64,000 bases of DNA from a plasmid: assembly GCF_054482525.1 (NCBI RefSeq), contig NZ_JBTHVG010000004.1. One strand, given 5' to 3'. The notes beneath the pieces were generated by a model. The model was not told the origin of the DNA. It saw nothing but the letters and a program-made list of their open reading frames with translations, and did no database searches. Both the position numbers and the translations under genes were made by a program. Shown in pieces: positions 20,583 to 63,193 of this stretch; position 1 is the stretch's first letter, and each line of letters begins with the position of its first letter.

Positions 20583-22547
20583 ATGATTATGCCTGTAACG
20601 AAGTGTGAACCAGAAACCACCCGCAAAGCAAGCCGTAAATATGTAAAAACGCAGGAAACTGCACTGTCTGCCCTGCTGGCGCAGACGGAGGAAGTGAGCG
20701 TGTCGCTGGCCTCACTGATTAAGTCACCGCTGAATGTGCGCACGGTGCCGTATTCTGCGGAGTCCGTCAGCGAACTGGCTGAGTCCATTAGGGGCGTTGG
20801 CCTGCTGCAGAATTTGGTCGTGCATACCCTGCCTGGTGACCGTTACGGTGTCGCCGCAGGTGGTCGCCGACTGGCTGCACTCAACATGCTGGCAGAGCGT
20901 GGCATCCTTACGGCTGACTGGCCTGTACGCGTGAAAATTATTCCGCAGGAGCTGGCGACTGCCGCATCAATGACTGAAAACGGTCATCGTCGGGATATGC
21001 ACCCTGCCGAACAGATTGCCGGATTCCGTGCAATGGCGCAGGAAGGCAAAACGCCTGCACAAATCGGTGATTTGCTGGGCTATTCGCCCCGCCATGTCCA
21101 GCGAATGCTGAAACTGGCTGACCTTGCGCCTGTCATCCTCGATGCGCTGGCAGAAGACCGCATCACCACAGAGCACTGTCAGGCGCTGGCGCTGGAGAAC
21201 GACACCGCGCGTCAGGTGCAGGTGTTTGAAGCCGCCTGCCAGTCGGGATGGGGCGGTAAACCGGAAGTACAGACCATTCGTCGTCTGGTGACCGAAAGTG
21301 AAGTGGCGGTGGCGGGGAACAGTAAATTCCGCTTCGTGGGGGCTGATGCCTTCTCGCCAGACGAACTGCGCACCGATTTGTTCAGCGACGACGAGGGTGG
21401 CTATGTGGACTGCGTGGCGCTCGATGCCGCCCTGCTGGAAAAACTCCAGGCTGTCGCAGAGTTCCTTCGGGAAGCCGAAGGCTGGGAATGGTGCGCCGGA
21501 CGCATGGAGCCTGTCGGTGAGTGCCGTGAGGATGCCGGAACATACCGCTGTCTGCCGGAGCCGGAAGCGGTGCTGACGGAGGCAGAAGAAGAACACCTGA
21601 ACGAACTGATGACGCGTTACGACGCGCTGGAAAACCAGTGTGAGGAATCCGACCTGCTGGAAGCAGAAATGAAGCTGATTGACTGCATGGCGAAGGTCAG
21701 GGCGTGGACGCCGGAGATGCGTGCCGGAAGTGGCGTGGTGGTGTCCTGGCGTTATGGCAACGTATGTGTCCAGCGTGGTGTGCAGTTGCGCAGTGAAGAT
21801 GACGCGACTGACGACGCTGACCGCACGGAACAGGTGCAGGAGAAAGCGTCAGTGGAGGAAATCAGCCTGCCGTTGCTGACGAAAATGTCCTCAGAGCGCA
21901 CGCTGGCAGTCCAGGCGGCACTCATGCAGCAGCCGGACAAATCTCTGGCACTGCTGGCATGGACGCTCTGCCTGAATGTGTTTGGCAGCGGGGCGTACAG
22001 TAAACCAGCACAAATCAGCCTGGAATGTGAACATTACTCGCTGACCAGCGATGCGCCATCGGGGAAGGAAGGTGCCGCATTCATGGCGCTGATGGCAGAA
22101 AAAGCCCGTCTTGCTGCCCTGTTACCGGAGGGATGGTCACGGGACATGACGACATTCCTGTCACTCAGTCAGGAGGTGCTGTTATCCCTGCTCAGCTTCT
22201 GCACTGCGTGCAGCATCCACGGTGTTCAGACCCGTGAGTATGGTCACACGTCACGCAGTCCGCTGGACTCGCTGGAAACCGCTATCGGCTTTCACATGCG
22301 CGACTGGTGGCAGCCGACAAAAGCAAACTTCTTCGGACACCTGAAAAAGCCGCAGATTATCGCAGCCCTGAATGAGGCAGGACTGTCCGGTGCCGCACGG
22401 GACGCGGAGAAGATGAAGAAAGGCGATGCCGCTGAACATGCAGAGTTCCATATGAAAGACAACCGCTGGGTGCCTGGCTGGATGTGTTCACCACGTCCAC
22501 AGACGGATGCCACTGAACGCGCCGATAACCTGGCTGATGCCGCCTGA
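20583..22547 (+). CDS. ParB/Srx N-terminal domain (ParB-like nuclease) protein of the leading region
   Basis: 654 aa; ParB-like N-terminal domain, HTH-like segment. Confidence 0.65.
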   Translation: MIMPVTKCEPETTRKASRKYVKTQETALSALLAQTEEVSVSLASLIKSPLNVRTVPYSAESVSELAESIRGVGLLQNLVVHTLPGDRYGVAAGGRRLAALNMLAERGILTADWPVRVKIIPQELATAASMTENGHRRDMHPAEQIAGFRAMAQEGKTPAQIGDLLGYSPRHVQRMLKLADLAPVILDALAEDRITTEHCQALALENDTARQVQVFEAACQSGWGGKPEVQTIRRLVTESEVAVAGNSKFRFVGADAFSPDELRTDLFSDDEGGYVDCVALDAALLEKLQAVAEFLREAEGWEWCAGRMEPVGECREDAGTYRCLPEPEAVLTEAEEEHLNELMTRYDALENQCEESDLLEAEMKLIDCMAKVRAWTPEMRAGSGVVVSWRYGNVCVQRGVQLRSEDDATDDADRTEQVQEKASVEEISLPLLTKMSSERTLAVQAALMQQPDKSLALLAWTLCLNVFGSGAYSKPAQISLECEHYSLTSDAPSGKEGAAFMALMAEKARLAALLPEGWSRDMTTFLSLSQEVLLSLLSFCTACSIHGVQTREYGHTSRSPLDSLETAIGFHMRDWWQPTKANFFGHLKKPQIIAALNEAGLSGAARDAEKMKKGDAAEHAEFHMKDNRWVPGWMCSPRPQTDATERADNLADAA

Positions 22548-24456: not shown

Positions 24457-24788
24457 CCGCCGGCTCCGCTTTTACCCGGCCATGCGGGGCATGGCCTTGT
24501 GGGTTTTCAGTTATGTGGCCTCAGCGTCGTGTGCGGGCTGTGCCGTGCCTCCATCGTAGCCGGGCTTCTGCGGGCGGGTTGCAAGGTAAGGTGAACCGCT
24601 GCGGTCACCCGGTCCCTCCTTCCCGTCCGCCGTGATTTTCCGGTCGTTCACCCGCTCAGATTTCGCGGTCTCACCCTCCAACTCCCGCCAGCCGTGTGCG
24701 TCAGGCTGCGGCTTCCCTTGCGCCCTTGCAACCCTGCAGGCCCGGCAAAGATGGAGGCACGGCACCGCCCGGTGTCGCAGAACATGTG
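24457..24788 (+). promoter_or_regulatory. Leading-region repeat family A copy 2 (ssi/Frpo-like) upstream of ardA
   Basis: near-identical to 17508-17842. Confidence 0.5.
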
Positions 24789-24806
24789 ACTATGGAGGAT
24801 TCGGGA

Positions 24807-25307
24807 ATGTCTGTTGTTGCACCTGCTGTATACGTTGGAACCTGGCACAAATACAACTGTGGAAGCATCGCCGGACGCTGGTTTGACCTGACCACGTTTG
24901 ATGATGAGCGCGACTTTTTCGCCGCCTGCCGTGCTCTTCACCAGGATGAAGCCGATCCTGAACTGATGTTTCAGGATTATGAGGGATTCCCGGGGAATAT
25001 GGCCTCTGAATGCCATATCAACTGGGCCTGGGTTGAAGGCTTCCGCCAGGCACGGGATGAAGGCTGCGAAGAGGCTTATCGTCTCTGGGTGGAGGATACC
25101 GGTGAGACGGATTTTGACACCTTCCGCGATGCCTGGTGGGGCGAGGCTGACAGTGAGGAGGCTTTTGCGGTTGAGTTCGCCAGTGATACCGGCCTGCTGG
25201 CTGACGTGCCGGAGACGGTGGCGCTCTATTTTGACTATGAGGCGTATGCGCGGGATTTATTCCTGGACTCCTTCACCTTTATTGACGGTCATGTGTTCCG
25301 TCGGTGA
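24807..25307 (+). CDS. ardA: Anti-restriction protein ArdA (DNA mimic)
   Basis: 166 aa from internal Met (MSVVAPAVYVGTWHKYN..); very acidic; matches ArdA as recalled. Confidence 0.9.
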   Translation: MSVVAPAVYVGTWHKYNCGSIAGRWFDLTTFDDERDFFAACRALHQDEADPELMFQDYEGFPGNMASECHINWAWVEGFRQARDEGCEEAYRLWVEDTGETDFDTFRDAWWGEADSEEAFAVEFASDTGLLADVPETVALYFDYEAYARDLFLDSFTFIDGHVFRR

Positions 25308-34465: not shown

Positions 34466-36757
34466 TCAGTACATTCCGTCCCAGTCCGGACGGTTGTTTT
34501 TTTTATGATGAAACCCGTTTACAGGACGCCCTGTCGGGTGGTTATTGTCCTGTGGAAGCGTTAACAGGTTTATACCGGCTCTTTCTGCTCTCACTGATAT
34601 CTGATTTTCCTCATTTGTTTCAGGTAGTTCTGGTCTGTTCAGTGTGATATAGCGAATTCGTCGCTCTTCCCGGGTGGTCGTTTTAAGCGTATTCACCGCT
34701 GTTTCCCATAAGGCACTTTCACGTGCGTTGATATCCGTGTCGTACTCTTCCAGCATTGCCATAGCCGCCTGACGTCCTGCAATGCGTTGCTGGAATGTAT
34801 CCACGATCGTGTGCGGCTCTGTGCGAATTTTTCGTCTTTTTCTGGAGGGTTTTGCAGTCAGGACGCCAATGATGGCACTGACATTTTCCGGTGACGGTAT
34901 TCGACGTTGAGTAGTACGGGGAACAAGACGGCGGAGACGGTCCAGGCGTGGCGCATCCACGCTGATATACCTGTTTATAACAACGGGATCGCTGCTGCAG
35001 CTTTTCTCATCGTCAGGGATGAAGAATGATGCTGATGGTACGGTTTCTCCCCGGAAAATAGAAAAGAACTCGCCAGGATGAAGTTCAATCAACTCCTGAA
35101 CATTTATCTTGCTTTCCATCAGGATGCTGATTTGTGGGCTGTCAATCCATGATTCACCAAATATGCCGTCCTGACGCTGCAGGTTGTTCATCCTCGCCCT
35201 GGCTTCTTCACCGGCGGCGCTTTTCAGCGTTCTGGCCGTACTACCCTCGCTGACAATCCTGCCGGCAAATTTTGTCCCCGTGTTCTGCATCAGTGTTGCA
35301 GTATTCGTGGCTGTTGTCTGTCCTTCTATACGTTCCTGGTCCTGTGCCATCAAAATCAGAGCAAAATCCAGTGAACGCACCTGAGTGGCTTCCACAGCAA
35401 TACGGTCCGTATAGTATGCCCCCACTTCATCAAGGAAACACAGATAAGGGAAACGCCCCTTATATTTTTTGACTTCCAGTGCATCGGAATCAGTTCCTTC
35501 GAGGCGGTAGCCCAAATCACGGGCGAGAATCATACTTTTCTGGGTGATAAACATTCGTCCAAGAGCAGACGTTGTATGCGCTGATGTATCCAGAGCGGGG
35601 ATCATTACCATCAGAATCCTGTCGCTGTGAATGCTGTCACGGATATCGATATCACCGGAATCTTCAGCAAAAATATCCCCGAATGCTTCCGTGAATGTGC
35701 TGAAAGTTTCAGAAAACTGCCCGGAGAGATAAGCATGTTGTTTTCTGGGTTCTTCCGTCCAGGCTGATGGTGTCCTGACCAGCGACAGGTCGAAACCGGG
35801 AACGTCCTGAAGGTAGTTACGTAACGGTGCGATAGCTTCTTCCGGCCACTGATCATCGAGGCCACGACAGTAAAGTTTGGCCATCCCTTCGAGAGTCATA
35901 TGTTCACGGAGCATCTGCAGCGACATTGTTTTGCCTTCGCGCACACACCAGAATTTAGTACCAAATACCAGTGCCTTATTCATGGCAATGGCCCGGGACT
36001 GCCACTCGCCCCCCTGGACGTTCTGGGGCAGCATTGACTGCATTGTCTCCGCTGTGAATGCCTCAGTGCTGTAACAGAAGGGATTCCAGGTATTTGACTG
36101 AGGACGCGTTTTTTCACCACTCAGAATGATTTCACTGCGGGATTTTCCTCCGTTCATGAAGTTAATGACTTCCACATCGTCTTCACGTCCAAAGCGTCTG
36201 GCCAGATACCAGATCGTTCTTGCCGTATCATTCTGTGCCTTGCCATCGACAAGGGTGAATCCTCTTGCCCAGCAAAGTGGGTTAATCGCCCAGGCAAAGA
36301 TGGTTTCCGTTTTACCGCCACCGGTGGTGGCGAAAAACATTATATGGCGGGTCAGATCGTCCATACTCAGCCATAACTCCCTGCCAATATCCCTGACGCG
36401 TTGATAACCAACATAGAATATGCCGCTGGCCGGTGATTCCAGAATGACCTCATACTGGAACAGGGTTGGCCAGAAGCTGAAAAGACTTCTTTTAATCATT
36501 CTGTCCTGTGACGGGTCAGCACATTCCAGCGTCATGGGCATACGAAGAGGGCAGCGCCATCGCTGCAGACTAAATACCAGCATTGTTATCAGTGTGAACA
36601 ACAGACATGCCGGTAATGCAAGTGGCCAGATAAAACTGGCCACAAGACTTGCCACCAGGCAAAAGCCATAGATATTGAGACTCTGGAGTGCATTCCAGAC
36701 AGGATTTCCCCAGGCTGTACGGTGTAAAAGCTCGGGGTTAACGCGATGTTCACTCAT
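34466..36757 (-). CDS. trbC: TrbC (DotL/IcmO-like type IV coupling protein)
   Basis: 763 aa; N-terminal TM segments; Walker A FFATTGGGKTE. Confidence 0.85.
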   Translation of the reverse strand: MSEHRVNPELLHRTAWGNPVWNALQSLNIYGFCLVASLVASFIWPLALPACLLFTLITMLVFSLQRWRCPLRMPMTLECADPSQDRMIKRSLFSFWPTLFQYEVILESPASGIFYVGYQRVRDIGRELWLSMDDLTRHIMFFATTGGGKTETIFAWAINPLCWARGFTLVDGKAQNDTARTIWYLARRFGREDDVEVINFMNGGKSRSEIILSGEKTRPQSNTWNPFCYSTEAFTAETMQSMLPQNVQGGEWQSRAIAMNKALVFGTKFWCVREGKTMSLQMLREHMTLEGMAKLYCRGLDDQWPEEAIAPLRNYLQDVPGFDLSLVRTPSAWTEEPRKQHAYLSGQFSETFSTFTEAFGDIFAEDSGDIDIRDSIHSDRILMVMIPALDTSAHTTSALGRMFITQKSMILARDLGYRLEGTDSDALEVKKYKGRFPYLCFLDEVGAYYTDRIAVEATQVRSLDFALILMAQDQERIEGQTTATNTATLMQNTGTKFAGRIVSEGSTARTLKSAAGEEARARMNNLQRQDGIFGESWIDSPQISILMESKINVQELIELHPGEFFSIFRGETVPSASFFIPDDEKSCSSDPVVINRYISVDAPRLDRLRRLVPRTTQRRIPSPENVSAIIGVLTAKPSRKRRKIRTEPHTIVDTFQQRIAGRQAAMAMLEEYDTDINARESALWETAVNTLKTTTREERRIRYITLNRPELPETNEENQISVRAERAGINLLTLPQDNNHPTGRPVNGFHHKKNNRPDWDGMY

Positions 36758-37820
36758 GGCCAGACTCGCTGTCGGTGGTTTTCAGGAATAAATTAAGCGT
36801 GCCAGTTTCCTGCAGAATTCCTGTAGGCAGATGCCAGCCGGTGTCGGACAGCACCCATGGGGTACCGGCAAATCCGAACTTACGGAAGGCGACATTGTTA
36901 ACATCAATCGCAGCTCTGGCTGCTTTCAGGCATGTTTCATCTGCAGGCGTTGTTTCTTCTGATGGCGTCATCATTCCGTTATCTGCGGAATACAGTCGGT
37001 GCCAGCCGGCAGCACGTTTCTGAGCATCTTTTTCACACAGCAGTGGTGCCACACGGTCGGTGGATTCCTCTCCACCAATAACTGAAACCGGGTAGATAAC
37101 GACATTGAAGTCGCTGGCCAGGCGTTTTAAGGCCGGCTCCAGAAGTCTGCAGTTAGGACAGGCAGGATCGAGAAATGCGAACAGGGTTCGTTCATGACCG
37201 GATGACAGGTTGATGGTAAACATGCCCCGATCGGCGTTCCGCTTCAGAACAGTAGCCAGATTATGTCGCGCAGCTGCGGCTTCCGGATTTTTGCTTGTGA
37301 TTGTTTTCTCCGGGACCTGGACGTCTTTTTTCGGGGGAACCGGGAGTTGAATGCCTTCATTTAATGGCACAGTGTGATTCAGGTGAGGGGGTAGCAGTCG
37401 TGGCTCACCTGCTGTCTGTACTGCTTCAGGCGTTGTATCATCCCAGAATACACGATCAACATAGCGGAACAGAGAGAAGCCAATCGTTGCCATTACGAAC
37501 AGCACAACGCTGGCGATTATGCCACGGAACAAAGGTGTTCTGCTGAAGCGGCGTTCCATCAGATATTCAAGGCGCAGGCAGGAATCAATAGCTGTAAGTA
37601 TCTGGTCAGCGTTATGCTCCTGTTTATCAATCAGGACGGTTTCTCTGTTACGGGTGCCCATGGCGTCAAAGGCTATATGAATCAGTTGATTATTTCGTGT
37701 TACCAGCCCTGACAGGGCATCCCGTGGAAGGACAGCAATAATTTCTGTCCTGCCATCCGGCCAGATTGCCTGCACGGAAATATGTTTTGCAATGCGTGTT
37801 GCAAAGTACTCGATTGTCAT
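36750..37820 (-). CDS. trbB: TrbB (thioredoxin-fold disulfide isomerase-like)
   Basis: 356 aa; CxxC motif LDPACPNCR. Confidence 0.8.
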   Translation of the reverse strand: MTIEYFATRIAKHISVQAIWPDGRTEIIAVLPRDALSGLVTRNNQLIHIAFDAMGTRNRETVLIDKQEHNADQILTAIDSCLRLEYLMERRFSRTPLFRGIIASVVLFVMATIGFSLFRYVDRVFWDDTTPEAVQTAGEPRLLPPHLNHTVPLNEGIQLPVPPKKDVQVPEKTITSKNPEAAAARHNLATVLKRNADRGMFTINLSSGHERTLFAFLDPACPNCRLLEPALKRLASDFNVVIYPVSVIGGEESTDRVAPLLCEKDAQKRAAGWHRLYSADNGMMTPSEETTPADETCLKAARAAIDVNNVAFRKFGFAGTPWVLSDTGWHLPTGILQETGTLNLFLKTTDSESGHE

Positions 37821-37838
37821 TTTCAGTTCTCCGGATAA

Positions 37839-39047
37839 TCAGAATTCGTTGTCTGTAGCAGGTGTGCGGGGCAGGATGTCGTCGGTGAGGGACCAGTTGG
37901 TCAGGATGCGGCGTTTCCGGTCGCGATCTGGTTGTGGTTCATCCCAGATAAGACCGAGACTGAGCATATCCCGCCGTAAGCCTTCCACCGCTTCATCAAC
38001 ACAGGGTTCAGGGCAGGGAAGACCAAAACGCATGGCTTCGGCCTCTGCACGTGCAACGGCCACCACGCCAGCGCCTTCAATAAATCCTTTCGTGGTATTG
38101 GCGCGGTGTAATGCATAAAACAGCGTTCTGTCCACGCCTTTCAGCCAAATCCAGTTGGGTGGCGTAAGCCGCAGGTCATGTGCATACAGCCAGACCAGCC
38201 CACTGCGGACGTAGCGATGTTGTTTCAGCCATTGCTGTGCTCCGTTGCTTTTAATCACTCTCTGGAAAGCTGATTTGGCCAGTGAATAAACAGGGGTACA
38301 GAATTTCCCGCTGTCCCGTTTGCTTTTAATTCTGCATGAGAGGTTCAGTGTATCCATGAGCTTTAATGCTGCCTTCCGATCATCCAGGAAATACTGAAGG
38401 CCAAATATGGCAAAGAGCGCTTTTTCATGTGGTGCCATGTCTTTCCAGGACGTTAAAGGTTTACCCAACTGGGCCATGAAACATCGTCTTGCAGCTGCAA
38501 CATCGAGCTGCATATTGGTGATGAGAGTATGCTGTTCGACAAATGCTTCCGGGGTGAGAGCAACCCGCCGTTCAGGTCGTTTACCACCATGAAAGAGTTT
38601 TTTCGGATCACCATCTGCCAGTACAGGGGCGATAGCAGGGGATAACGAAGCAAAGATGTGTGGCAGTCGGGTAATATCTACTGGTCTGCGGGTGAAACGG
38701 CTTTGTCCCGGATGTTGATACCATTCCCACAAACACCAGAGTGTCACAGGTAAGAGGTACATCCACAGAATACCTATGGTCTGTTCCATGACGTTAACCC
38801 ACTGGCTATAGCTTATGTTGGCGGCGTTGTTACCGGTCATGGCAAGCAGGTTGTATCGTGGTGCTGCATAGTTATGAAATGGTCCCCAGTCGACCAGTCC
38901 CCATAAGGTATGAAGAATCAGGCAGCTGGTGTAAACCACTTCCGGCAAGAATAACCATATGACGAATAGCAGCAGGATAAGAAGGACACCAACAGCGCCC
39001 CATATCTGCATAGGATCTTCTGCGACAGGCTGTCGATTGTAAGACAT
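37839..39047 (-). CDS. trbA: TrbA (DotM/IcmP-like inner membrane protein)
   Basis: 402 aa; N-terminal hydrophobic segments; position in trbCBA operon. Confidence 0.8.
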   Translation of the reverse strand: MSYNRQPVAEDPMQIWGAVGVLLILLLFVIWLFLPEVVYTSCLILHTLWGLVDWGPFHNYAAPRYNLLAMTGNNAANISYSQWVNVMEQTIGILWMYLLPVTLWCLWEWYQHPGQSRFTRRPVDITRLPHIFASLSPAIAPVLADGDPKKLFHGGKRPERRVALTPEAFVEQHTLITNMQLDVAAARRCFMAQLGKPLTSWKDMAPHEKALFAIFGLQYFLDDRKAALKLMDTLNLSCRIKSKRDSGKFCTPVYSLAKSAFQRVIKSNGAQQWLKQHRYVRSGLVWLYAHDLRLTPPNWIWLKGVDRTLFYALHRANTTKGFIEGAGVVAVARAEAEAMRFGLPCPEPCVDEAVEGLRRDMLSLGLIWDEPQPDRDRKRRILTNWSLTDDILPRTPATDNEF

Positions 39048-57334: not shown

Positions 57335-60300
57335 TCATCGGCCGGGGCTGTGGGAGAGATCCTGATGCAGAGTTTTTTCCTGCCTGTCCTCCGGCTTTTG
57401 GCTGTTGGACCACTGCTGCCATGACTGCTCGAAGCCCAGGTTCCGGTACAACGCATCAGGTTGTTTTTCCGGCGTGTAGACAGCAGCAAAAAGCGGTTCT
57501 TCCCGGGTTTTCAGATGAAACTGCATAAGCTCCGGTGCAGGGCGATTCGTGCTGTCAGCATCGTGGTTTACCGCTTCACCATAACCTGCAAAGCGTAAAC
57601 CTTTGTCGGTCAGCGCATTGATAACCAGCTGACTGTTGTCGGCTGATGGGGTGGCCAGTGCCGGATACAATGTGCCGTTCAGCCGGACCACACCCTGCAG
57701 ATGTTCATCGGCACTCTGGACAAGTAGCAGGTTGAGTTCACGCGTATCCTTATCCACTGATCCCAGAACAGGTGTCAGCTTGTCAGGGGCTGCGCTGGTT
57801 ATTTCTGTTACCTGATTTGCGTTCTGTGGCGCGGAGACCGGATGTCGGTCTTCACCGATAAACAGATGTGAGCCGACGTTTTCTGGCATACGTAACGCTT
57901 TCATCTCTTCGGGCCACCCCTGGCTGATTTGCGCAGCCACTTTCATAAAGGTTTCGACCGGAATCGCCTGAATACGCTGACCTTTATCCGGATTATCATG
58001 TGATACCGAGATCCCGTTGGTAACTGACTCCATGGACCACTTATTCCGGAAACGTGCTTTTTGCTCTCCCGGGAGGATGAATTGTTCGCGGTTCTGAAGT
58101 GTCAGTGTCACCACGTCACCTTTCTGATGGTTTTTGACCAGACTTTCCAGTTGTTCCCCCCAGTAGAGTTTGCTGCCACTGCGGTTTTTAAGCTCAACAA
58201 AGAAACTCTCTCCTTTGCCGGGTGCATATTCAGCACGACCAAAATTGTGCAGTACGGCAGTCACGCTCTCTCCCGGGCGAAGTTTTCCTGGTGGTTCTTC
58301 ACCTTGTGCCGCATCTGCCGTTTTGCCAGGTTCAGCCGGTGATGATGCAGGGACGGTGCTGACGGTTGATGCTTCAGGGGCTACTGGGGACGCCGGGGAT
58401 TGTGTGGCTTCTTTTTCCTGAACAGGGTCTGGGACTGCTGGTTGTTCAGGGGTATTCCGGTTAAGTTCCGGTGTTGGCTTATGGGTGACAACAGTATCCT
58501 TACCGACAGCCATTTCCTTGCGTAATTTTTCGAGCGCCGCTCGCTGATCCGGGAATTTCATGCGCACTTTGATGTTGTGCTCGATGATCAACTGCATCGC
58601 TTTTTGCTTAAAGGCATCACTGCCCGTCAGCTCAATGACACCACCATAAAAATCAGTGGCCACAGCAAGTGCAGCCAGAACACTGCGATCGTCATTGCTG
58701 GCACCGTTGACCATTTCCAGCCGGTTTACCCGGTCAATGAAGGCAGGTTTGCCATCCAGTTTGTACAGGACGGTTCTGTCTGCTCGTTCTTCACCTTCCA
58801 GCGATTTAATGATTTCGTCCAGATTGAGCGATATCGGTGCATCAGGGCGTTCCGGGGCGTAGACAATACTGTCAGGTGCCGGTGTGGTCGTCGTGGTTTC
58901 CGGTGAGGGTGTGGGATCACTGTTCTCATGCGCCTGGGAATCCGTTTTTTTACGCGTAAAAAAGCCACGCGCTTTGTCGAGAAACGATGAAGTATTATCA
59001 GAAGATGATGTGCTCTGAACAGGTTGCTGTGGAGTGGGGTCATCCCGGACAGCCGGTTCTACTGTATCTGTTGTGGCCTGAAGTTCTGACTCATCAGCCT
59101 GAACGTGGCCTGTGTCCGGTTGCGACGGCATATCACTGTTTTCCTGCAGATGCTCAGGATTTTCATTGTTCATCAGCTCCTGATATGTGCTGTAGTTTTC
59201 GTATTCTTCGGGGCCATCTGACTCAGGAAGGAACGGCTCTGGCTGAAGGGGAATGTCTTCAGTTACATGGTTGACCGCCTCTTCCCGGGGAGTATCCGGG
59301 GATATTCCGGTGCTTTGTTTGTCATCAGGCTCCGTCATCACGGTCATTTCCTCTTTGACTGCATCAGGGGAAGGTGATGGCTCGGCTGATTCATTCATGG
59401 TTTCAGATGAGGGACTGTCTTCAGGGGATGCGGTGGTGGCAGCAGGGGCCGGTATTTCAGGTGAAGTGCCGGATTCCTGTTGTGACTCGTTTTTTTCCGG
59501 TTGTGACAGTTCAGCTTCAAATTCACGCCAGTCTTTATCTGTGGCCACCGAGACAACTTTTTCCGGAGGTTCCGCCGGATGAGCGGGTTCATCAGGGGCA
59601 GACGCCGTTGTACTTTCCGGGGACGCCAGTGATTCTGCAGGGGAGTCCTGAACTACAGAGCTTTCCGTTTGCGCCTGAACGTTATCAGCGTGCCGCTCAT
59701 CTTTGCCGTTATTTTCAGTGGCGTGACTGGTAAATGACTGTGTTTCATCAGCAATGTTACTGCTGGAAGCAGCTGGTTGTTCCTGCTGCGTGGCGGACGG
59801 CAGAGAAGGTCCCTGGTCATGGCTGTGCCCTGTATCGGGTGATGTTTCAGGATATTCTGTCGGAGTCATGGTTTTTTCCTCAGTGTGGACCGGTGTAAAA
59901 ACGAGGTTGCCTATCACCAGTGCCTCGCGCATTTCCGGGGTGTTACTGTTGGGGGTGGAAACCCCGATGTGTTCTAACTGGGCGTTGATGACATGCTGAA
60001 AAGCGGCCCGTCCCCGGCTTGCGTCCAGGTCATTGAAATCGGTCAGCCCCTGCGCTTTTTCGGCATCGGTGAACGCAGGAAAGATGACCGATCCTCCTGT
60101 CAGTTCTGCGGCTTTTGTTGCACTGACGATACCTTTGTTAACCCGGATTGCATGATCGTTGTCGGCACAGAAGATAAAGGGGCTTTGCGTCCACTTTTGC
60201 CGGGCATTTTCGGCAACGGCAATCATGTTGCCTCCATCCACCGTCATCAGTACCGGAAGGCCCGTGGCTTCGTGCAGGGAGGCCGCAGTGGCATAGCCCT

Positions 60301-61138
60301 CGGCAAACAGTACCGGCTGACCGTTGCGCGGTGTGCCCAGCGCAAACCAGTTACCGGTTTTCTCCGAATCTATCAGGATGCGGGCATCTTTCCCCCCGGT
60401 GACCGGAATACGCTGGTAAGAGCGTATCGCGCCGTTACGGTTACTGAAGGGAATAACCAGTTCATTTTTGTTGTTTACCCGCACCCCCGGTGCAGCCTGA
60501 ATGCCTTTCCGGGTCAGGTATTCATGTGCTGTGGCCTGCGGCCATTTGTTGATATAGCGGCGGGCATACGCGGCCTGTCGGTTGTACTGTGCTTTCAGTT
60601 CCCGCTCCGCGTCCTCCCTGCGTTGCATTGAATGCGCTTTCAGGTGGAGTCTTGCGCGGGGATCTGTCTGTTCTCCGCCGGAGAAGGTCCAGGTGATCGG
60701 CGAATTATCCGCGCTGCGATAATCCCTGTACCAGCCGGCAGGTCTGCCGTCCAGGAATCCGCGATATGCGCCACTTTTTTGTCCTTTTTTGTCATCGGCG
60801 GTCGGGACACGGTGGATTTTCCCGTCCATGACCGGCAGTTCTTTCAGAACCAGTCCGGCATTCTCCAGAACCTGGGCAAACTCGGTGACCGGATCACTGC
60901 CGTTCATGGAGACGTCCTGTGGCCGGGGCAGCCAGCGGTCCAGCCTGGACAGGTCCGCCCCCGGGCGGGCGAACCAGAGTTTGTGCTCCTTGTCCCAGAT
61001 GACGGGCGTGTGCCCGTTCATCGGGGGATGTGCTTTTTTGAGATCTTCTATTTCATCTGCAGGCACGGCAAGCCAGGTGCGGTAGCGGGATACAGACGGC
61101 ATGAGTGCTTCTCCTGAAAAAAGACGGAAAAAAACCAC
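57335..61138 (-). CDS. sogL: Sog DNA primase (large form SogL; conjugatively transferred primase)
   Basis: 1267 aa; N-terminal primase-like domain, about 350 aa acidic Pro/Ser/Thr/Glu-rich low-complexity linker, C-terminal domain. Confidence 0.85.
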   Translation of the reverse strand: MVFFRLFSGEALMPSVSRYRTWLAVPADEIEDLKKAHPPMNGHTPVIWDKEHKLWFARPGADLSRLDRWLPRPQDVSMNGSDPVTEFAQVLENAGLVLKELPVMDGKIHRVPTADDKKGQKSGAYRGFLDGRPAGWYRDYRSADNSPITWTFSGGEQTDPRARLHLKAHSMQRREDAERELKAQYNRQAAYARRYINKWPQATAHEYLTRKGIQAAPGVRVNNKNELVIPFSNRNGAIRSYQRIPVTGGKDARILIDSEKTGNWFALGTPRNGQPVLFAEGYATAASLHEATGLPVLMTVDGGNMIAVAENARQKWTQSPFIFCADNDHAIRVNKGIVSATKAAELTGGSVIFPAFTDAEKAQGLTDFNDLDASRGRAAFQHVINAQLEHIGVSTPNSNTPEMREALVIGNLVFTPVHTEEKTMTPTEYPETSPDTGHSHDQGPSLPSATQQEQPAASSSNIADETQSFTSHATENNGKDERHADNVQAQTESSVVQDSPAESLASPESTTASAPDEPAHPAEPPEKVVSVATDKDWREFEAELSQPEKNESQQESGTSPEIPAPAATTASPEDSPSSETMNESAEPSPSPDAVKEEMTVMTEPDDKQSTGISPDTPREEAVNHVTEDIPLQPEPFLPESDGPEEYENYSTYQELMNNENPEHLQENSDMPSQPDTGHVQADESELQATTDTVEPAVRDDPTPQQPVQSTSSSDNTSSFLDKARGFFTRKKTDSQAHENSDPTPSPETTTTTPAPDSIVYAPERPDAPISLNLDEIIKSLEGEERADRTVLYKLDGKPAFIDRVNRLEMVNGASNDDRSVLAALAVATDFYGGVIELTGSDAFKQKAMQLIIEHNIKVRMKFPDQRAALEKLRKEMAVGKDTVVTHKPTPELNRNTPEQPAVPDPVQEKEATQSPASPVAPEASTVSTVPASSPAEPGKTADAAQGEEPPGKLRPGESVTAVLHNFGRAEYAPGKGESFFVELKNRSGSKLYWGEQLESLVKNHQKGDVVTLTLQNREQFILPGEQKARFRNKWSMESVTNGISVSHDNPDKGQRIQAIPVETFMKVAAQISQGWPEEMKALRMPENVGSHLFIGEDRHPVSAPQNANQVTEITSAAPDKLTPVLGSVDKDTRELNLLLVQSADEHLQGVVRLNGTLYPALATPSADNSQLVINALTDKGLRFAGYGEAVNHDADSTNRPAPELMQFHLKTREEPLFAAVYTPEKQPDALYRNLGFEQSWQQWSNSQKPEDRQEKTLHQDLSHSPGR

Positions 61139-61191: not shown

Positions 61192-61743
61192 TCAGGGTCT
61201 CCAGTCTGTACCCTTATTCCAGCGATCCTGCCAGTGTTCAAGATATTGTGCGGCTACATCCGGCATATTCTTGAGCACAACGACATTCTCTGAATTCTTG
61301 CGTGCAGCAGCACGAGAGAAGTTATAGGAGCCAGTTTCAACCGTGTTTCCGTCAACAATGATGACTTTGTCGTGATGGATGGGGAAGGCATCTACAGTCC
61401 GGAGAGGAATGTCCAGCAGGTTGATATATTTCATCGCTTCCTGACTTGCCCGGTTCGTATTCCCCTTGTCATCAACAACAATACGGACGTCCACTCCGCG
61501 TTTTTTCGCTTTTGCCAGCGCATGCATTACATCCGGGTCGGTGAAGGAATATGCCATCATCCTGATGGAGCTTTCCGCACTGTTGATTGTGTCAAGCACC
61601 AGAGCGGATGCGCTTCCTTCAGGAGAAAAGCCGACCTTCACGGATGGCGTGTCGATCATTGCAAACGATGGTGTCGTGAACAGTAACGGGCATGCCAGTA
61701 GCGATACCCGGAGCAGAGTAACGATAGTTTTTTTACCTGACAT
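61192..61743 (-). CDS. nuc: Nuc, phospholipase D-family (HKD) endonuclease
   Basis: start at internal Met MSGKKTIV.. with signal peptide; HKD motif HHDKVIIVDGNTVETGSYNFS. Confidence 0.8.
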   Translation of the reverse strand: MSGKKTIVTLLRVSLLACPLLFTTPSFAMIDTPSVKVGFSPEGSASALVLDTINSAESSIRMMAYSFTDPDVMHALAKAKKRGVDVRIVVDDKGNTNRASQEAMKYINLLDIPLRTVDAFPIHHDKVIIVDGNTVETGSYNFSRAAARKNSENVVVLKNMPDVAAQYLEHWQDRWNKGTDWRP

Positions 61744-61757
61744 AAAGACTCCAGAAT

Positions 61758-62048
61758 TTAATCGAGGCCAGTCCAGTCTCGTGGTGATTCCGTATGGTGG
61801 CGATACCACCATGGACGACCGGAGGCGATGGCCCCTCTCAGAATGCTGAAAATGCGAGTACAGATCGTCCTGACAGTCCAGCCTGAACGGTCGAGAATGA
61901 CGAAAAATAAAATGATGCCGGTGCAAATCCAGAAGGTTGTTTTGGAGGGAAAGGGGCATATAAACAGATAAATCATGGTGAACGGCAGAGGTACGCCCTG
62001 GATGTTGACTGGCGGTGTTGCATATCGCCAGAAACCTTCTCTTTTCAT
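61758..62048 (-). CDS. traK: TraK (small membrane protein)
   Basis: 96 aa; hydrophobic. Confidence 0.65.
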   Translation of the reverse strand: MKREGFWRYATPPVNIQGVPLPFTMIYLFICPFPSKTTFWICTGIILFFVILDRSGWTVRTICTRIFSILRGAIASGRPWWYRHHTESPRDWTGLD

Positions 62049-63193
62049 GACCGTAACTCCCCTGGCGGGATAAAAAGAATCGCTTCTCTTCGGTCAACTT
62101 CATTCCGGATATACATTTCCAGAATCTGGTCCCGGATACGGCGCTTCTCCTGCCGGATTATGGCATCAATGTGATGCCCCCACTCTGCATGCGGCATTCC
62201 GGAAAGATTGTCGCGAAGCTCATCGTTAATGACGATATATTCCCGGACGGCTTTACGACCACCGTCATTTGTTCTGACCAGAACCTGAACCAGAATGAAC
62301 TGCAACAGTGACAGGACAGCCCAGGCCATCGAATCCCTGATGACAGGGGGAAACAGCCCAAGAAGACGTGCCAGCGTTTCACCAGGAGATTTCGTATGCA
62401 TGGTGCTCAGGCAGTAATGCCCGGTGTTGCCTGCCTGTACCGCTGCGTCGGCGGTTTCGTTATCCCTGATCTCACCAACACCGATAATTTCGGGATTACG
62501 TCGTACAGCAGAACGCAGTCCGGCAGCAAAACTGACCACATCACGCCCGATTTCTGCCTGATGCGGTGGGAGCAGATCGTTTTCATTTCCCAGGATATAT
62601 TCCACCGGGTCTTCATATGTCACGATTTTGGCGTCGGGGAAATTGTCCATAATGTAACGGTACAGTGCTGAACACAGCGTTGATTTTCCTGACCCGGTTT
62701 CACCACATACAAATCCCAGACCGCTTTTGCAGACCATTGCTTCAAGCAGGTCTGGTTCAATGTTCATGGAGAGAATGTCCGGTATTTCTGTCGGGATGAC
62801 ACGCATGGTTATTGAGACTGCTTTCTCCTCTGCACCAGATGTGCCCTGAATGAGGTGAGAGCGTAACCGGATGCGTTCTCCGCGTTTAAGACCATAGCGA
62901 CCGGATGCATCCCCGTTAATCTGTATCGTCCTGTCAACCGGATTGCCTGCCAGAACGCGGGGAACGACTTCCCGACCGAACAGTTCATCAATCAGGGAGG
63001 ACATGAGTGTGGTTGGTAACGTTGCACTGGAACAACGCACCCGTCGGCCAAAGCGACTGACAGATACAGGTGACCCACCGGTCAGATCCACATCACTGAC
63101 TTTATGTGCGGCACACCAGACAAAGAAATGCCGTAATTCATCTGCAGTGAAACGCTGAAACGGAAAAAGACCAAACTCATCAGGAATATTCAT
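62045..63193 (-). CDS. traJ: TraJ, DotB/PilT/VirB11-type secretion ATPase
   Basis: 382 aa; Walker A GETGSGKST. Confidence 0.9.
   Translation of the reverse strand: MNIPDEFGLFPFQRFTADELRHFFVWCAAHKVSDVDLTGGSPVSVSRFGRRVRCSSATLPTTLMSSLIDELFGREVVPRVLAGNPVDRTIQINGDASGRYGLKRGERIRLRSHLIQGTSGAEEKAVSITMRVIPTEIPDILSMNIEPDLLEAMVCKSGLGFVCGETGSGKSTLCSALYRYIMDNFPDAKIVTYEDPVEYILGNENDLLPPHQAEIGRDVVSFAAGLRSAVRRNPEIIGVGEIRDNETADAAVQAGNTGHYCLSTMHTKSPGETLARLLGLFPPVIRDSMAWAVLSLLQFILVQVLVRTNDGGRKAVREYIVINDELRDNLSGMPHAEWGHHIDAIIRQEKRRIRDQILEMYIRNEVDRREAILFIPPGELRS

Follow-up and report, generated by a model that had tools for sequence, protein, structure and literature searches.

What is the long acidic, low-complexity stretch inside the sog gene of this plasmid, and does it behave as the hypervariable linker, possibly important for transport of the Sog primase into recipients, that a first reading of the sequence took it to be? 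We addressed this question in 64,000 nucleotides of plasmid DNA (the window; assembly GCF_054482525.1, contig NZ_JBTHVG010000004.1), combining domain searches, structure prediction, and comparisons of alleles and relatives.

The sog gene and its domain architecture

The gene is sog, encoding the IncI1 conjugative primase, as the sequence-only reading had recognized. It shares 97.6% DNA identity with R64 sog, with no indels and 1255 aa in both, and lies in the R64 nuc-sog-traL order, with a PLD nuclease gene (nuc) upstream and traL, traM, traN, and traO downstream. The allele is 100% identical to sog of the S. Infantis megaplasmid pN55391, and the main cluster at 90% identity holds 10,386 sequences with a representative of 1255 aa. 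The sogL coding sequence occupies 57335..61102 on the minus strand (1255 aa plus stop) and starts with the ATG at 61102, matching R64 and every annotated IncI1 record; the GTG at 61138, from which the gene caller's ORF begins (57335..61138, minus strand), was rejected as an unused upstream extension. Primase activity of Sog and its transfer as a protein into recipients are known from the literature (PMC6112013, PMC8406263). The acidic segment is an already familiar part of this well-known primase, and our analysis changes nothing in the knowledge of Sog. Annotation pipelines give the product no fuller name than “LPD7 domain-containing” or “DUF5710 domain-containing” and leave SogS out.

SogL begins with a primase module (aa 1–395; 59918..61102, minus strand, as are all Sog features below), delimited by Pfam matches and composition, and residues 1–411 are basic (pI 9.4). 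It carries DUF5710 (60926–61081) and a Toprim_3 match (60008–60307) that falls just below the Pfam cut-off (E 6e-5, 23.9 bits vs 27.2). The sequence EGYATA, read at aa 268–273 (60284..60301), is the motif reportedly used by Strack et al. in 1992 to define I/P-type plasmid primases. On the far side of the acidic segment, LPD7 (PF18821; 58520..58777) is matched with E 4.4e-14 and 52.7 bits against a cut-off of 27; the AlphaFold2-confident LPD7 block corresponds to SogS 347–457, with pLDDT of 80–89 in the flanking LPD7. This score above the Pfam gathering threshold, in a protein that has several domains and belongs to a conjugative element, places Sog among the polyvalent proteins. Membership in the TraI/MobP relaxases was rejected: the only NCBIfam match aligns the LPD7 region with the C-terminal end of that model at 16 bits against a cut-off of 250, and it probably reflects shared LPD7-like sequence rather than a relaxase.

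LPD7 is followed by a second, shorter disordered linker rich in P, A, E, and S (SogL 869–932; 58307..58498), recognized by composition and AlphaFold2, and by a beta-rich C-terminal module (SogL 933–1217; 57452..58306), delimited by AlphaFold2 and Foldseek. The protein ends in a low-confidence tail of 38 residues with a net charge of zero (SogL 1218–1255; 57338..57451), assigned from AlphaFold2 and composition. The C-terminal module gave consistent but weak Foldseek matches to the OB-fold ssDNA binders RPA70, hSSB1, POT1, and HIN (E 2e-3 to 3e-2, none reaching 1e-3), a likeness to tandem OB-fold ssDNA binders. Sequence searches of the PDB returned no relative, and Foldseek against the PDB gave nothing for the acidic segment.

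The acidic segment as SogL spacer and SogS tail

The sequence-only reading had described a long acidic, low-complexity stretch rich in P, S, T, E, and D between the primase and C-terminal modules, at 58830–59880 (SogL residues ~408–758). Composition, charge, and the flanking Pfam matches bear this out, and composition, charge-hydropathy, and AlphaFold2 together delimit the segment as SogL 412–757, equivalent to SogS 1–346 (58832..59869). Across residues 412–752 (341 aa scored), P (12.6%), S (13.2%), T (10.9%), E (12.9%), D (7.9%), and Q (6.5%) make up 64% of the sequence compared with 36% in the remainder of SogL, and hydrophobic residues fall to 13.8% from 27% elsewhere in the protein. With 71 D+E against 16 K+R, these residues have a net charge of −55 and a pI of 3.76. 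We compared net charge among 1,299 windows of 100 aa drawn from those parts of the 64 kb that run for ≥200 aa without a stop (mean 0.1, sd 6.1, 1st percentile −20), and those from the segment were the most negative of all (−21 to −25). Comparably acidic stretches in the window occur only on the plus strand, where two long ORFs have ArdA and ParB-like Pfam matches.

The low complexity of the segment (Shannon entropy 3.1–3.7 bits vs 3.6–4.0 bits elsewhere in SogL) is compositional, not repetitive. TRF found no tandem repeats in the segment, a direct-repeat search returned only chance pairs of 12–16 nt, and self-BLAST of six linkers gave no matches to internal protein repeats, which excludes repeats as the origin of the low complexity and also of the variation in length.

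The stretch had also been called disordered, and two predictors agree. On the charge-hydropathy plot it falls on the disordered side (H 0.368, where the boundary for |R| 0.162 lies at 0.471), and AlphaFold2 models SogS 1–346 at pLDDT <50, around 26 (block means 24–33), with essentially no secondary structure beyond two helices of 3–6 residues. Because the AlphaFold2 alignment is shallow (24 sequences), the low pLDDT is supportive of disorder, not conclusive. The segment is thus predicted to be an intrinsically disordered, strongly acidic spacer of ~345 residues. Alignment reveals two local features within it: a basic island, SFLDKARGFFTRKK (58946..58987), conserved only in the I-complex and its nearest relatives, and a conserved motif, D-x-I-x-x-[AG]-P-x-R-P (DSIVYAPERPDAP; 58835..58873), at the C-terminal edge of the variable segment.

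The description of this stretch as a linker holds for SogL and is incomplete for the gene. An in-frame ATG at 59867..59869 (Met412 of SogL), preceded at a distance of 7 nt by a GAGGA Shine-Dalgarno sequence (59877..59881), leaves exactly 844 aa, and SogS is 844 aa long (PMC6112013). Met or Val occupies this position in 25 of 25 aligned I-complex representatives, and the start is also present in IncK2/Z DNA. Met412 is therefore the predicted start of SogS. The start coincides with the first residue of the segment, which would therefore serve both as a spacer within SogL and as the 346-residue N-terminal tail of SogS.

Other ORFs overlap sog in this region: five opposite-strand ORFs between 58577 and 59999, and one, 58726–59043, in an alternative frame of the same strand. 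That any of them is a real gene is scarcely credible. Two, 59253–59582 and 59374–59733, are unbroken in 10 of 10 IncI1 alleles, but premature stops in other IncI1 alleles interrupt 58577–58906 (plus strand), 58987–59274 (plus strand), and the same-strand ORF, and 59754–59999 (plus strand) has lost its stop codon in three alleles. The longest stop-free antisense run, 124 codons, is unexceptional against codon-shuffled versions (100 ± 26 codons, 16% of which reach 124). The overlapping ORFs lack promoter-like sites, substitutions fit purifying selection in the Sog frame, and in IncK2/Z relatives the region cannot be aligned. As had been judged from the sequence, the antisense ORFs have arisen by chance. 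We found no sigma-70-like promoters, and an Rfam search gave no matches; a listing of terminator-like hairpins placed most of them on the non-coding strand.

Conservation within IncI1 and drift between lineages

Hypervariability, which the sequence-only reading ascribed to such linkers, depends on the scale of comparison. Within IncI1 it does not hold: 1,331 of 1,353 matching plasmids carry the segment at ≥95% identity, where it measures 1051 or 1048 nt, and its nucleotide diversity (π 0.011–0.033) is not above that of the flanking primase (0.023–0.058) and LPD7 (0.037–0.048) regions. Conservation of length and sequence, which that reading had itself set against its claim, is thus what we observe among these plasmids. 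Ten IncI1 sequences comprised six distinct alleles, among which the only linker indel was of 3 nt, and dN/dS in the Sog frame was 0.31 for the segment compared with 0.14 and 0.05 for the folded domains. That the segment is as conserved within IncI1 as the folded domains could reflect sequence-specific constraint or simply recent common ancestry.

Two natural deletions, identified by allele comparison, remove larger parts of the segment: one of 336 nt (58906..59241; 112 residues) in E. coli GCA_020469405.1, and one of 504 nt (58910..59413; 168 residues) in CP166758.1, the latter bordered by an imperfect 16-nt direct repeat. A large part of the segment is therefore dispensable, at least for persistence. 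Like the 3-nt indel, both deletions are in frame, which, together with the dN/dS, indicates constraint on the reading frame.

The deletions also bear on plasmid typing. Exact matches at 58850–58870 and 59124–59140 to what we take to be the IncI1 pMLST sogS primers delimit an amplicon of 291 bp (58850..59140; aa 655–751) inside the segment, with an inner length of 253 nt. The published sogS allele length is 254 bp (PMC2887853). The pMLST sogS locus thus appears to sit inside the disordered, deletion-prone segment, and since the natural in-frame deletions remove one primer site, plasmids that carry them are probably untypable at sogS.

Between I-complex lineages and beyond, the claim of hypervariability stands. 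Among 25 I-complex representatives, the gap between primase and LPD7 ranges from 201 to 497 aa with 0–33% identity, and the segment differs in length and sequence more than the flanking domains do; even with sensitive blastn, spacers of IncK2/Z and other I-complex plasmids hardly align at all with the IncI1 segment. Composition, by comparison, is retained, with a pI of 3.70–3.95 and a net charge of −25 to −65 in all 25 representatives. The 40 more distant primase-LPD7 proteins we examined have unalignable gaps of 66–752 aa, net-acidic in 40 of 40, and no relative with both domains lacks a spacer, the shortest being 66 aa. The longest distant spacers are more hydrophobic (0.24–0.30) and may hold extra folded domains. 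Composition kept while sequence and length change is a hallmark of intrinsically disordered regions.

Set against known systems, SogL and SogS of R64/ColIb-P9 share the gene, the operon position, and the internal start of an 844-aa SogS; the gene described here differs from theirs only at the level of alleles. In IncK2/Z and other I-complex plasmids, the Sog homologues (1150–1405 aa) have the same architecture, the internal Met, and a spacer pI of 3.7–3.95, but differ in the primase-to-LPD7 gap (242–497 aa). The Toprim primase/LPD7 “polyvalent” proteins (Iyer et al. 2017), including Pri of the IncM plasmid pCTX-M3, have the same order of primase then LPD7 and are delivered with DNA; for Pri, too, there may be a second, shorter product from the C-terminal part (PMC5512222; PMC6112013). 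The spacers of distant primase/LPD7 proteins are likewise net-acidic, with their own range of lengths; the architecture of conjugative primase-LPD7 proteins seems to include such a spacer as a conserved element.

Possible roles of the segment

We consider it likely that the segment is a disordered spacer of SogL, and tail of SogS, that is selected for its composition and acts as a tether and solubility element. What is selected would be the overall character of the segment, its negative charge, its low hydrophobicity, and its open frame, rather than the sequence itself; every relative would therefore retain the composition, whereas length and sequence would diverge from lineage to lineage, presumably through in-frame indels in non-repetitive, low-complexity DNA. 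In SogL, the spacer would join the basic Toprim primase module to LPD7 and the OB-like C-terminal module as an entropic, electrostatically repulsive tether that maintains the solubility of a very large protein and allows the primase to act away from the module riding on the transferred single strand. An unfolded polyanionic chain would also suit transit through the I-type (Dot/Icm-like) secretion channel. In a transposon screen of pESBL, the SogS-coding part scored 1.00 as “required for transfer”, and the whole of SogL 0.74 as required and 0.26 as non-essential (PMC4288162); in these data the segment is inseparable from the C-terminal module, and the scores may reflect polarity on downstream tra genes.

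Rival readings differ in what they ask of the acidic residues. The segment might act as a recruitment signal by binding to basic patches on TrbA, which is the DotM homologue of IncI plasmids; this would account for abundant, DNA-independent export of Sog. Acidic Glu-rich peptides are bound by Legionella DotM in its type IVB coupling complex, and R64 TrbA has been aligned as a homologue at 23% identity (PMC5802825); trbA and trbC are present in the same 64-kb window, export of Sog runs to hundreds of copies and does not depend on the plasmid (PMC8406263), and the segment is rich in Glu and acidic in every relative examined. Like the E-block signals of Legionella Dot/Icm effectors that DotM recognizes, it is acidic, Glu-rich, unstructured, and part of a type IVB substrate. 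E-block signals, however, are Glu-rich stretches at the C terminus (PMC5802825), whereas the ~345 aa of the Sog segment are internal in SogL or N-terminal in SogS and the C-terminal 38 residues of Sog carry no net charge. TrbA is only a distant relative of DotM, and circulating plasmids tolerate the loss of up to 168 aa from the supposed signal. On balance, we regard docking on TrbA as unlikely. A nucleic-acid mimic, in which the polyanionic tail shields the primase and the OB-like module intramolecularly against nucleic acids of the donor until the transferred strand is met, strikes us as rather improbable. The contrast between the basic primase module (pI 9.4) and the segment (pI 3.8) would suit such a role, as would the OB-fold matches of the C-terminal module, but none of these matches reaches E 1e-3. 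One of the two long ORFs in the similarly acidic stretches, which occur only on the plus strand, matches ArdA, itself a DNA mimic. The acidic tails of E. coli SSB, T7 gp2.5, and T4 gp32 offer an analogy, being acidic, disordered, and attached to OB folds (putative and weakly assigned in Sog), but those tails are short and C-terminal, whereas the Sog segment precedes the OB-like module and is very long. It has also been speculated that Sog coats the transferred strand (PMC6112013).

Two further readings concern selection. The segment could be functionless filler that drifts neutrally and is tolerated as long as the downstream frame stays open, and its unalignability between lineages, wide length range, large in-frame deletions, and a dN/dS exceeding that of the folded domains all point that way. 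Neutral drift, however, would not maintain negative charge and low hydrophobicity in 25 of 25 I-complex and 40 of 40 distant proteins; the dN/dS is still well below 1, and the spacer never falls below 66 aa among relatives with both domains. To filler we give only a small chance. Diversifying selection, for instance for evasion of recipient defenses, would make the segment truly hypervariable among circulating IncI plasmids; the use of a fragment within it as a typing locus and the six alleles in ten sequences could be read in this sense, but the unraised π, the dN/dS of 0.31, and the essentially single length of the segment in nearly all IncI1 plasmids make this very unlikely.

Alongside the composition-selected tether that we favor, a further reading, which takes up the speculative idea that the segment matters for transport, is that the disordered polyanionic chain is what makes Sog an export substrate, whether as a Glu-rich handle for TrbA or as a threadable mimic of ssDNA. 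We judge this quite improbable. If true, it would account for the hundreds of Sog molecules that are delivered independently of DNA in each mating, and both TrbA and the acidic spacers present across primase-LPD7 proteins would acquire a function.

The sog gene and its acidic segment

The segment lies within sog, the IncI1 plasmid primase gene. An ORF caller places the sog-containing ORF at 57335..61138 (-), starting at GTG; the real start of the long product, SogL, is the ATG at 61102, with AGGAG just upstream, giving 1255 aa, the same length as R64 SogL, and this ATG is used in every annotated IncI1 record examined. The gene shares 97.6% DNA identity with R64 sog without indels, is 100% identical to the allele of pN55391 (a 316.8-kb Salmonella Infantis megaplasmid), and is flanked by a PLD-family nuclease gene and traL/traM/traN/traO, matching the R64 order. 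It is the known sog, both products of which were characterised previously. On the minus strand, in 1255-aa numbering, Pfam matches comprise DUF5710 (aa 8-59), a near-threshold Toprim_3 (aa 266-365), and LPD7 (aa 776-861, E 4.4e-14), and an EGYATA primase motif is encoded at 60284-60301 (-). No PDB relative was found by sequence.

Public plasmid records label sog variously as 'LPD7 domain-containing', 'DUF5710 domain-containing', 'DNA primase', 'hypothetical protein', or not at all, and the short product, SogS, is without annotation in those examined. Some IncI1-type plasmids carry a frameshifted sog, with 1-nt indels outside the acidic segment; in CP052804.1 it is split into a 'mobilization protein' and a 'DNA primase', and in NZ_CP051282.1 (137-3904) sog has 14 in-frame stops and no annotated CDS. 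Upstream of sog, a 303-aa ORF (61192-62103, -) is an over-extended call of nuc, whose PLD-family nuclease has 183 aa, and overlaps a small traK-like ORF (61758-62048, -) in a different frame.

A sequence-only reading had described a Sog linker of about 350 acidic, low-complexity residues at 58830-59880, and composition, charge, and coordinates all bear this out. In SogL 412-752 (341 aa), P/S/T/E/D/Q make up 64% of residues versus 36% in the remaining protein, and hydrophobic residues 13.8% versus 27%; 71 acidic and 16 basic residues give a net charge of -55 and a pI of 3.76. Among 1,299 windows of 100 aa taken across every long stop-free stretch of the 64 kb, none is more acidic than those of the segment (net -21 to -25; 1st percentile, -20). 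The only other comparably acidic stretches lie on the + strand at ~21.4-25 kb, where the long ORFs 20583-22547 and 24696-25307 match Pfam ParB (ParB_N, HTH_ParB) and ArdA antirestriction families. Tandem repeats, meaningful direct repeats, and internal protein repeats were not found in the segment; its bias is compositional, not repetitive.

Disorder prediction, which the same reading had proposed as a check, agreed: by charge and hydropathy the segment falls among disordered sequences, and an AlphaFold2 model of SogS, built from an alignment with 23 homologues, shows SogS 1-346 (58832-59869, -, almost exactly the interval first proposed) essentially without secondary structure (pLDDT 24-33). 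The adjoining LPD7 block (SogS 347-457) reaches pLDDT 80-89, and a beta-rich C-terminal module (SogS 522-806) about 70-85. The protein is a known one, and a spacer of low complexity is an ordinary trait for it. A shorter disordered linker, rich in P/A/E/S, separates LPD7 from the C-terminal module (SogL 869-932; 58307-58498, -); among homologues it is less variable in length (61-104 aa).

The opposite-strand ORFs overlapping the segment were earlier judged spurious, and that judgement stands: the longest antisense stop-free run, 124 codons, is of a length that codon-shuffled controls also give (100 +/- 26; 16% of shuffles reach at least 124), and no promoter-like sites or Rfam families were found. 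The segment uses no TTA or CTA codon and only 14 TCA codons. Other alleles interrupt three of the overlapping ORFs (two antisense, one in an alternative frame of the same strand), and a fourth lacks its stop codon in three alleles.

The internal start of SogS

Published work gives sog two products, the 1255-aa SogL and the 844-aa SogS, translation of the latter initiating in frame within the gene (PMC6112013). An 844-aa product requires SogS to start at Met412, so the acidic segment begins at SogS residue 1, a coincidence newly added here. The codon is an ATG (59869-59867) preceded by GAGGA (59881-59877) with a 7-nt spacer. The position is aligned in 25/25 I-complex representatives (IncI1 and related plasmids such as IncK2/Z); four carry Val, possibly reflecting a GTG start, and the start codon is ATG in three IncK2/Z loci. 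One stretch of DNA thus has two roles, as a spacer in SogL and as an N-terminal tail in SogS. A transposon screen of pESBL gave the part coding for SogS a score of 1.00 for "required for transfer", and whole SogL 0.74 required and 0.26 non-essential (PMC4288162). These scores fit a dispensable primase-only part; the segment, the C-terminal module, and polar effects are inseparable there.

Variation within and between lineages

The spacer had also been called hypervariable, which holds between lineages (0-33% identity, gap of 201-497 aa) but not within IncI1, where conservation was found in diversity, length, and identity, the outcome that the same reading had named as its refutation; this contrast is new to the present analysis. 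By sensitive blastn, the 1051-nt segment matches 1,353 plasmids, 1,331 of them at ≥95% identity; 1,327 cover ≥80% of the query, and the length is either 1051 or 1048 nt. Among ten alleles spanning 95-100% identity, segment pi (0.011-0.033) is not higher than that of the primase (0.023-0.058) or LPD7 (0.037-0.048), and the linker has a single indel, of 3 nt. With dN/dS of 0.31, versus 0.14 for the primase and 0.05 for the C-terminal module, the segment is relaxed relative to both, yet purifying selection in the Sog frame is clear. When proteins are clustered at 90% identity, the main cluster (10,386 sequences) has a 1255-aa representative.

Across the 120 I-complex homologues listed, length ranges from 1087 to 1405 aa, with essentially all variation in the primase-LPD7 gap (201-497 aa, versus 61-104 aa for the second gap). 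Twenty-two representatives fall outside the IncI1 cluster (flanking-domain identity to the window's Sog 76-89% for the closest, about 60-76% for others); in these, aa 426-725 retain 0-33% identity with many gaps, versus 50-94% in the flanks. About 450 IncK/B/O/Z-type records match the sog 3' end but not the segment at all by sensitive blastn. Composition is constant across I-complex representatives (pI 3.70-3.95, net charge -25 to -65). Among 40 distant primase-LPD7 proteins, cluster representatives with both domains from a 1.84-billion-protein library, spacers of 66-752 aa are net-acidic in all 40, which adds that an acidic spacer is general across primase-LPD7 proteins. On its C-terminal side the variable part is bounded by a conserved D-x-I-x-x-[AG]-P-x-R-P motif (DSIVYAPERPDAP, 58835-58873). 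Within the acidic segment lies a basic island (SFLDKARGFFTRKK, 58946-58987, -) that could be a short linear motif; it is partly helical, with Ser and Arg invariant across the I-complex. Its conservation reaches no further than the I-complex and nearest relatives, and it is absent from distant relatives.

Natural deletions within the segment are a further addition: two IncI1 alleles of E. coli plasmids carry in-frame deletions confined to it. One, in GCA_020469405.1 (L014, 201-3632), lacks 336 nt (window equivalent 58906-59241) at a 2-nt microhomology, in an allele 99.9% identical to the window's. The other, in the complete plasmid CP166758.1 (L015, 201-3464), lacks 504 nt (58910-59413) bounded by imperfect 16-nt direct repeats encoding PSSET and PSAET. 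No mechanism is needed beyond illegitimate recombination at chance similarities within low-complexity sequence, and in-frame products alone would keep the required C-terminal module intact.

Two sequences that we take to be the IncI1 pMLST sogS primers match the window exactly (58850-58870, +; 59124-59140, -), bounding a 291-bp amplicon with an inner part of 253 nt; they were not found in the literature searched. If their presumed identity is correct, the typing locus is aa 655-751 of the disordered segment. The fragment shows six alleles among ten sequences, and the 336-nt and 504-nt deletions each remove one presumed primer site. The scheme's sogS fragment is 254 bp (PMC2887853).

Possible roles of the segment and the C-terminal module

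The segment is disordered, polyanionic, and conserved in composition, with a basic primase module (pI 9.4) on its N-terminal side and the LPD7 and beta-rich module on its C-terminal side. We infer that it acts through bulk properties, probably as a solubility element and a flexible tether that repels itself, and an unfolded polyanionic chain would suit passage through the I-type secretion channel.

Recruitment of Sog by docking of the segment on TrbA seems unlikely. Acidic Glu-rich peptides are ligands of Legionella DotM, of which R64 TrbA is a distant homologue with a function described as unknown (PMC5802825); trbA is present in the window (37842-39047, -). However, the Glu-rich signals of the Legionella Dot/Icm system are at the C terminus, unlike the acidic segment of Sog. 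Somewhat more doubtful still is intramolecular nucleic-acid mimicry, which would also agree with a speculation in the literature that the transferred strand is coated by Sog (PMC6112013). It is suggested by Foldseek matches of the modelled C-terminal module, which are weak (E 2e-3 to 3e-2, none at E ≤1e-3) but share the theme of OB-fold ssDNA binding. Action through bulk properties is our preferred reading. The trbC, trbB, and trbA genes (34469-39047, -), homologues of the DotL/DotM coupling complex, are >99% identical to R64.

For SogL 933-1217 (57452-58306, -), the best PDB Foldseek matches, all weak, are uniformly OB-fold ssDNA/DNA binders (RPA70, hSSB1, POT1, HIN), a hint that the predicted beta-rich module may consist of tandem OB folds. 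Roughly SogL 950-1255 (57335-58250, -) is almost invariant within IncI1 (pi 0.002-0.011, dN/dS 0.05); near-invariance of these C-terminal 300 residues would be in keeping with a conserved determinant of interaction or translocation. Megablast aligns sog with IncK2/Z plasmids only over its last ~420 nt, at about 76% identity.
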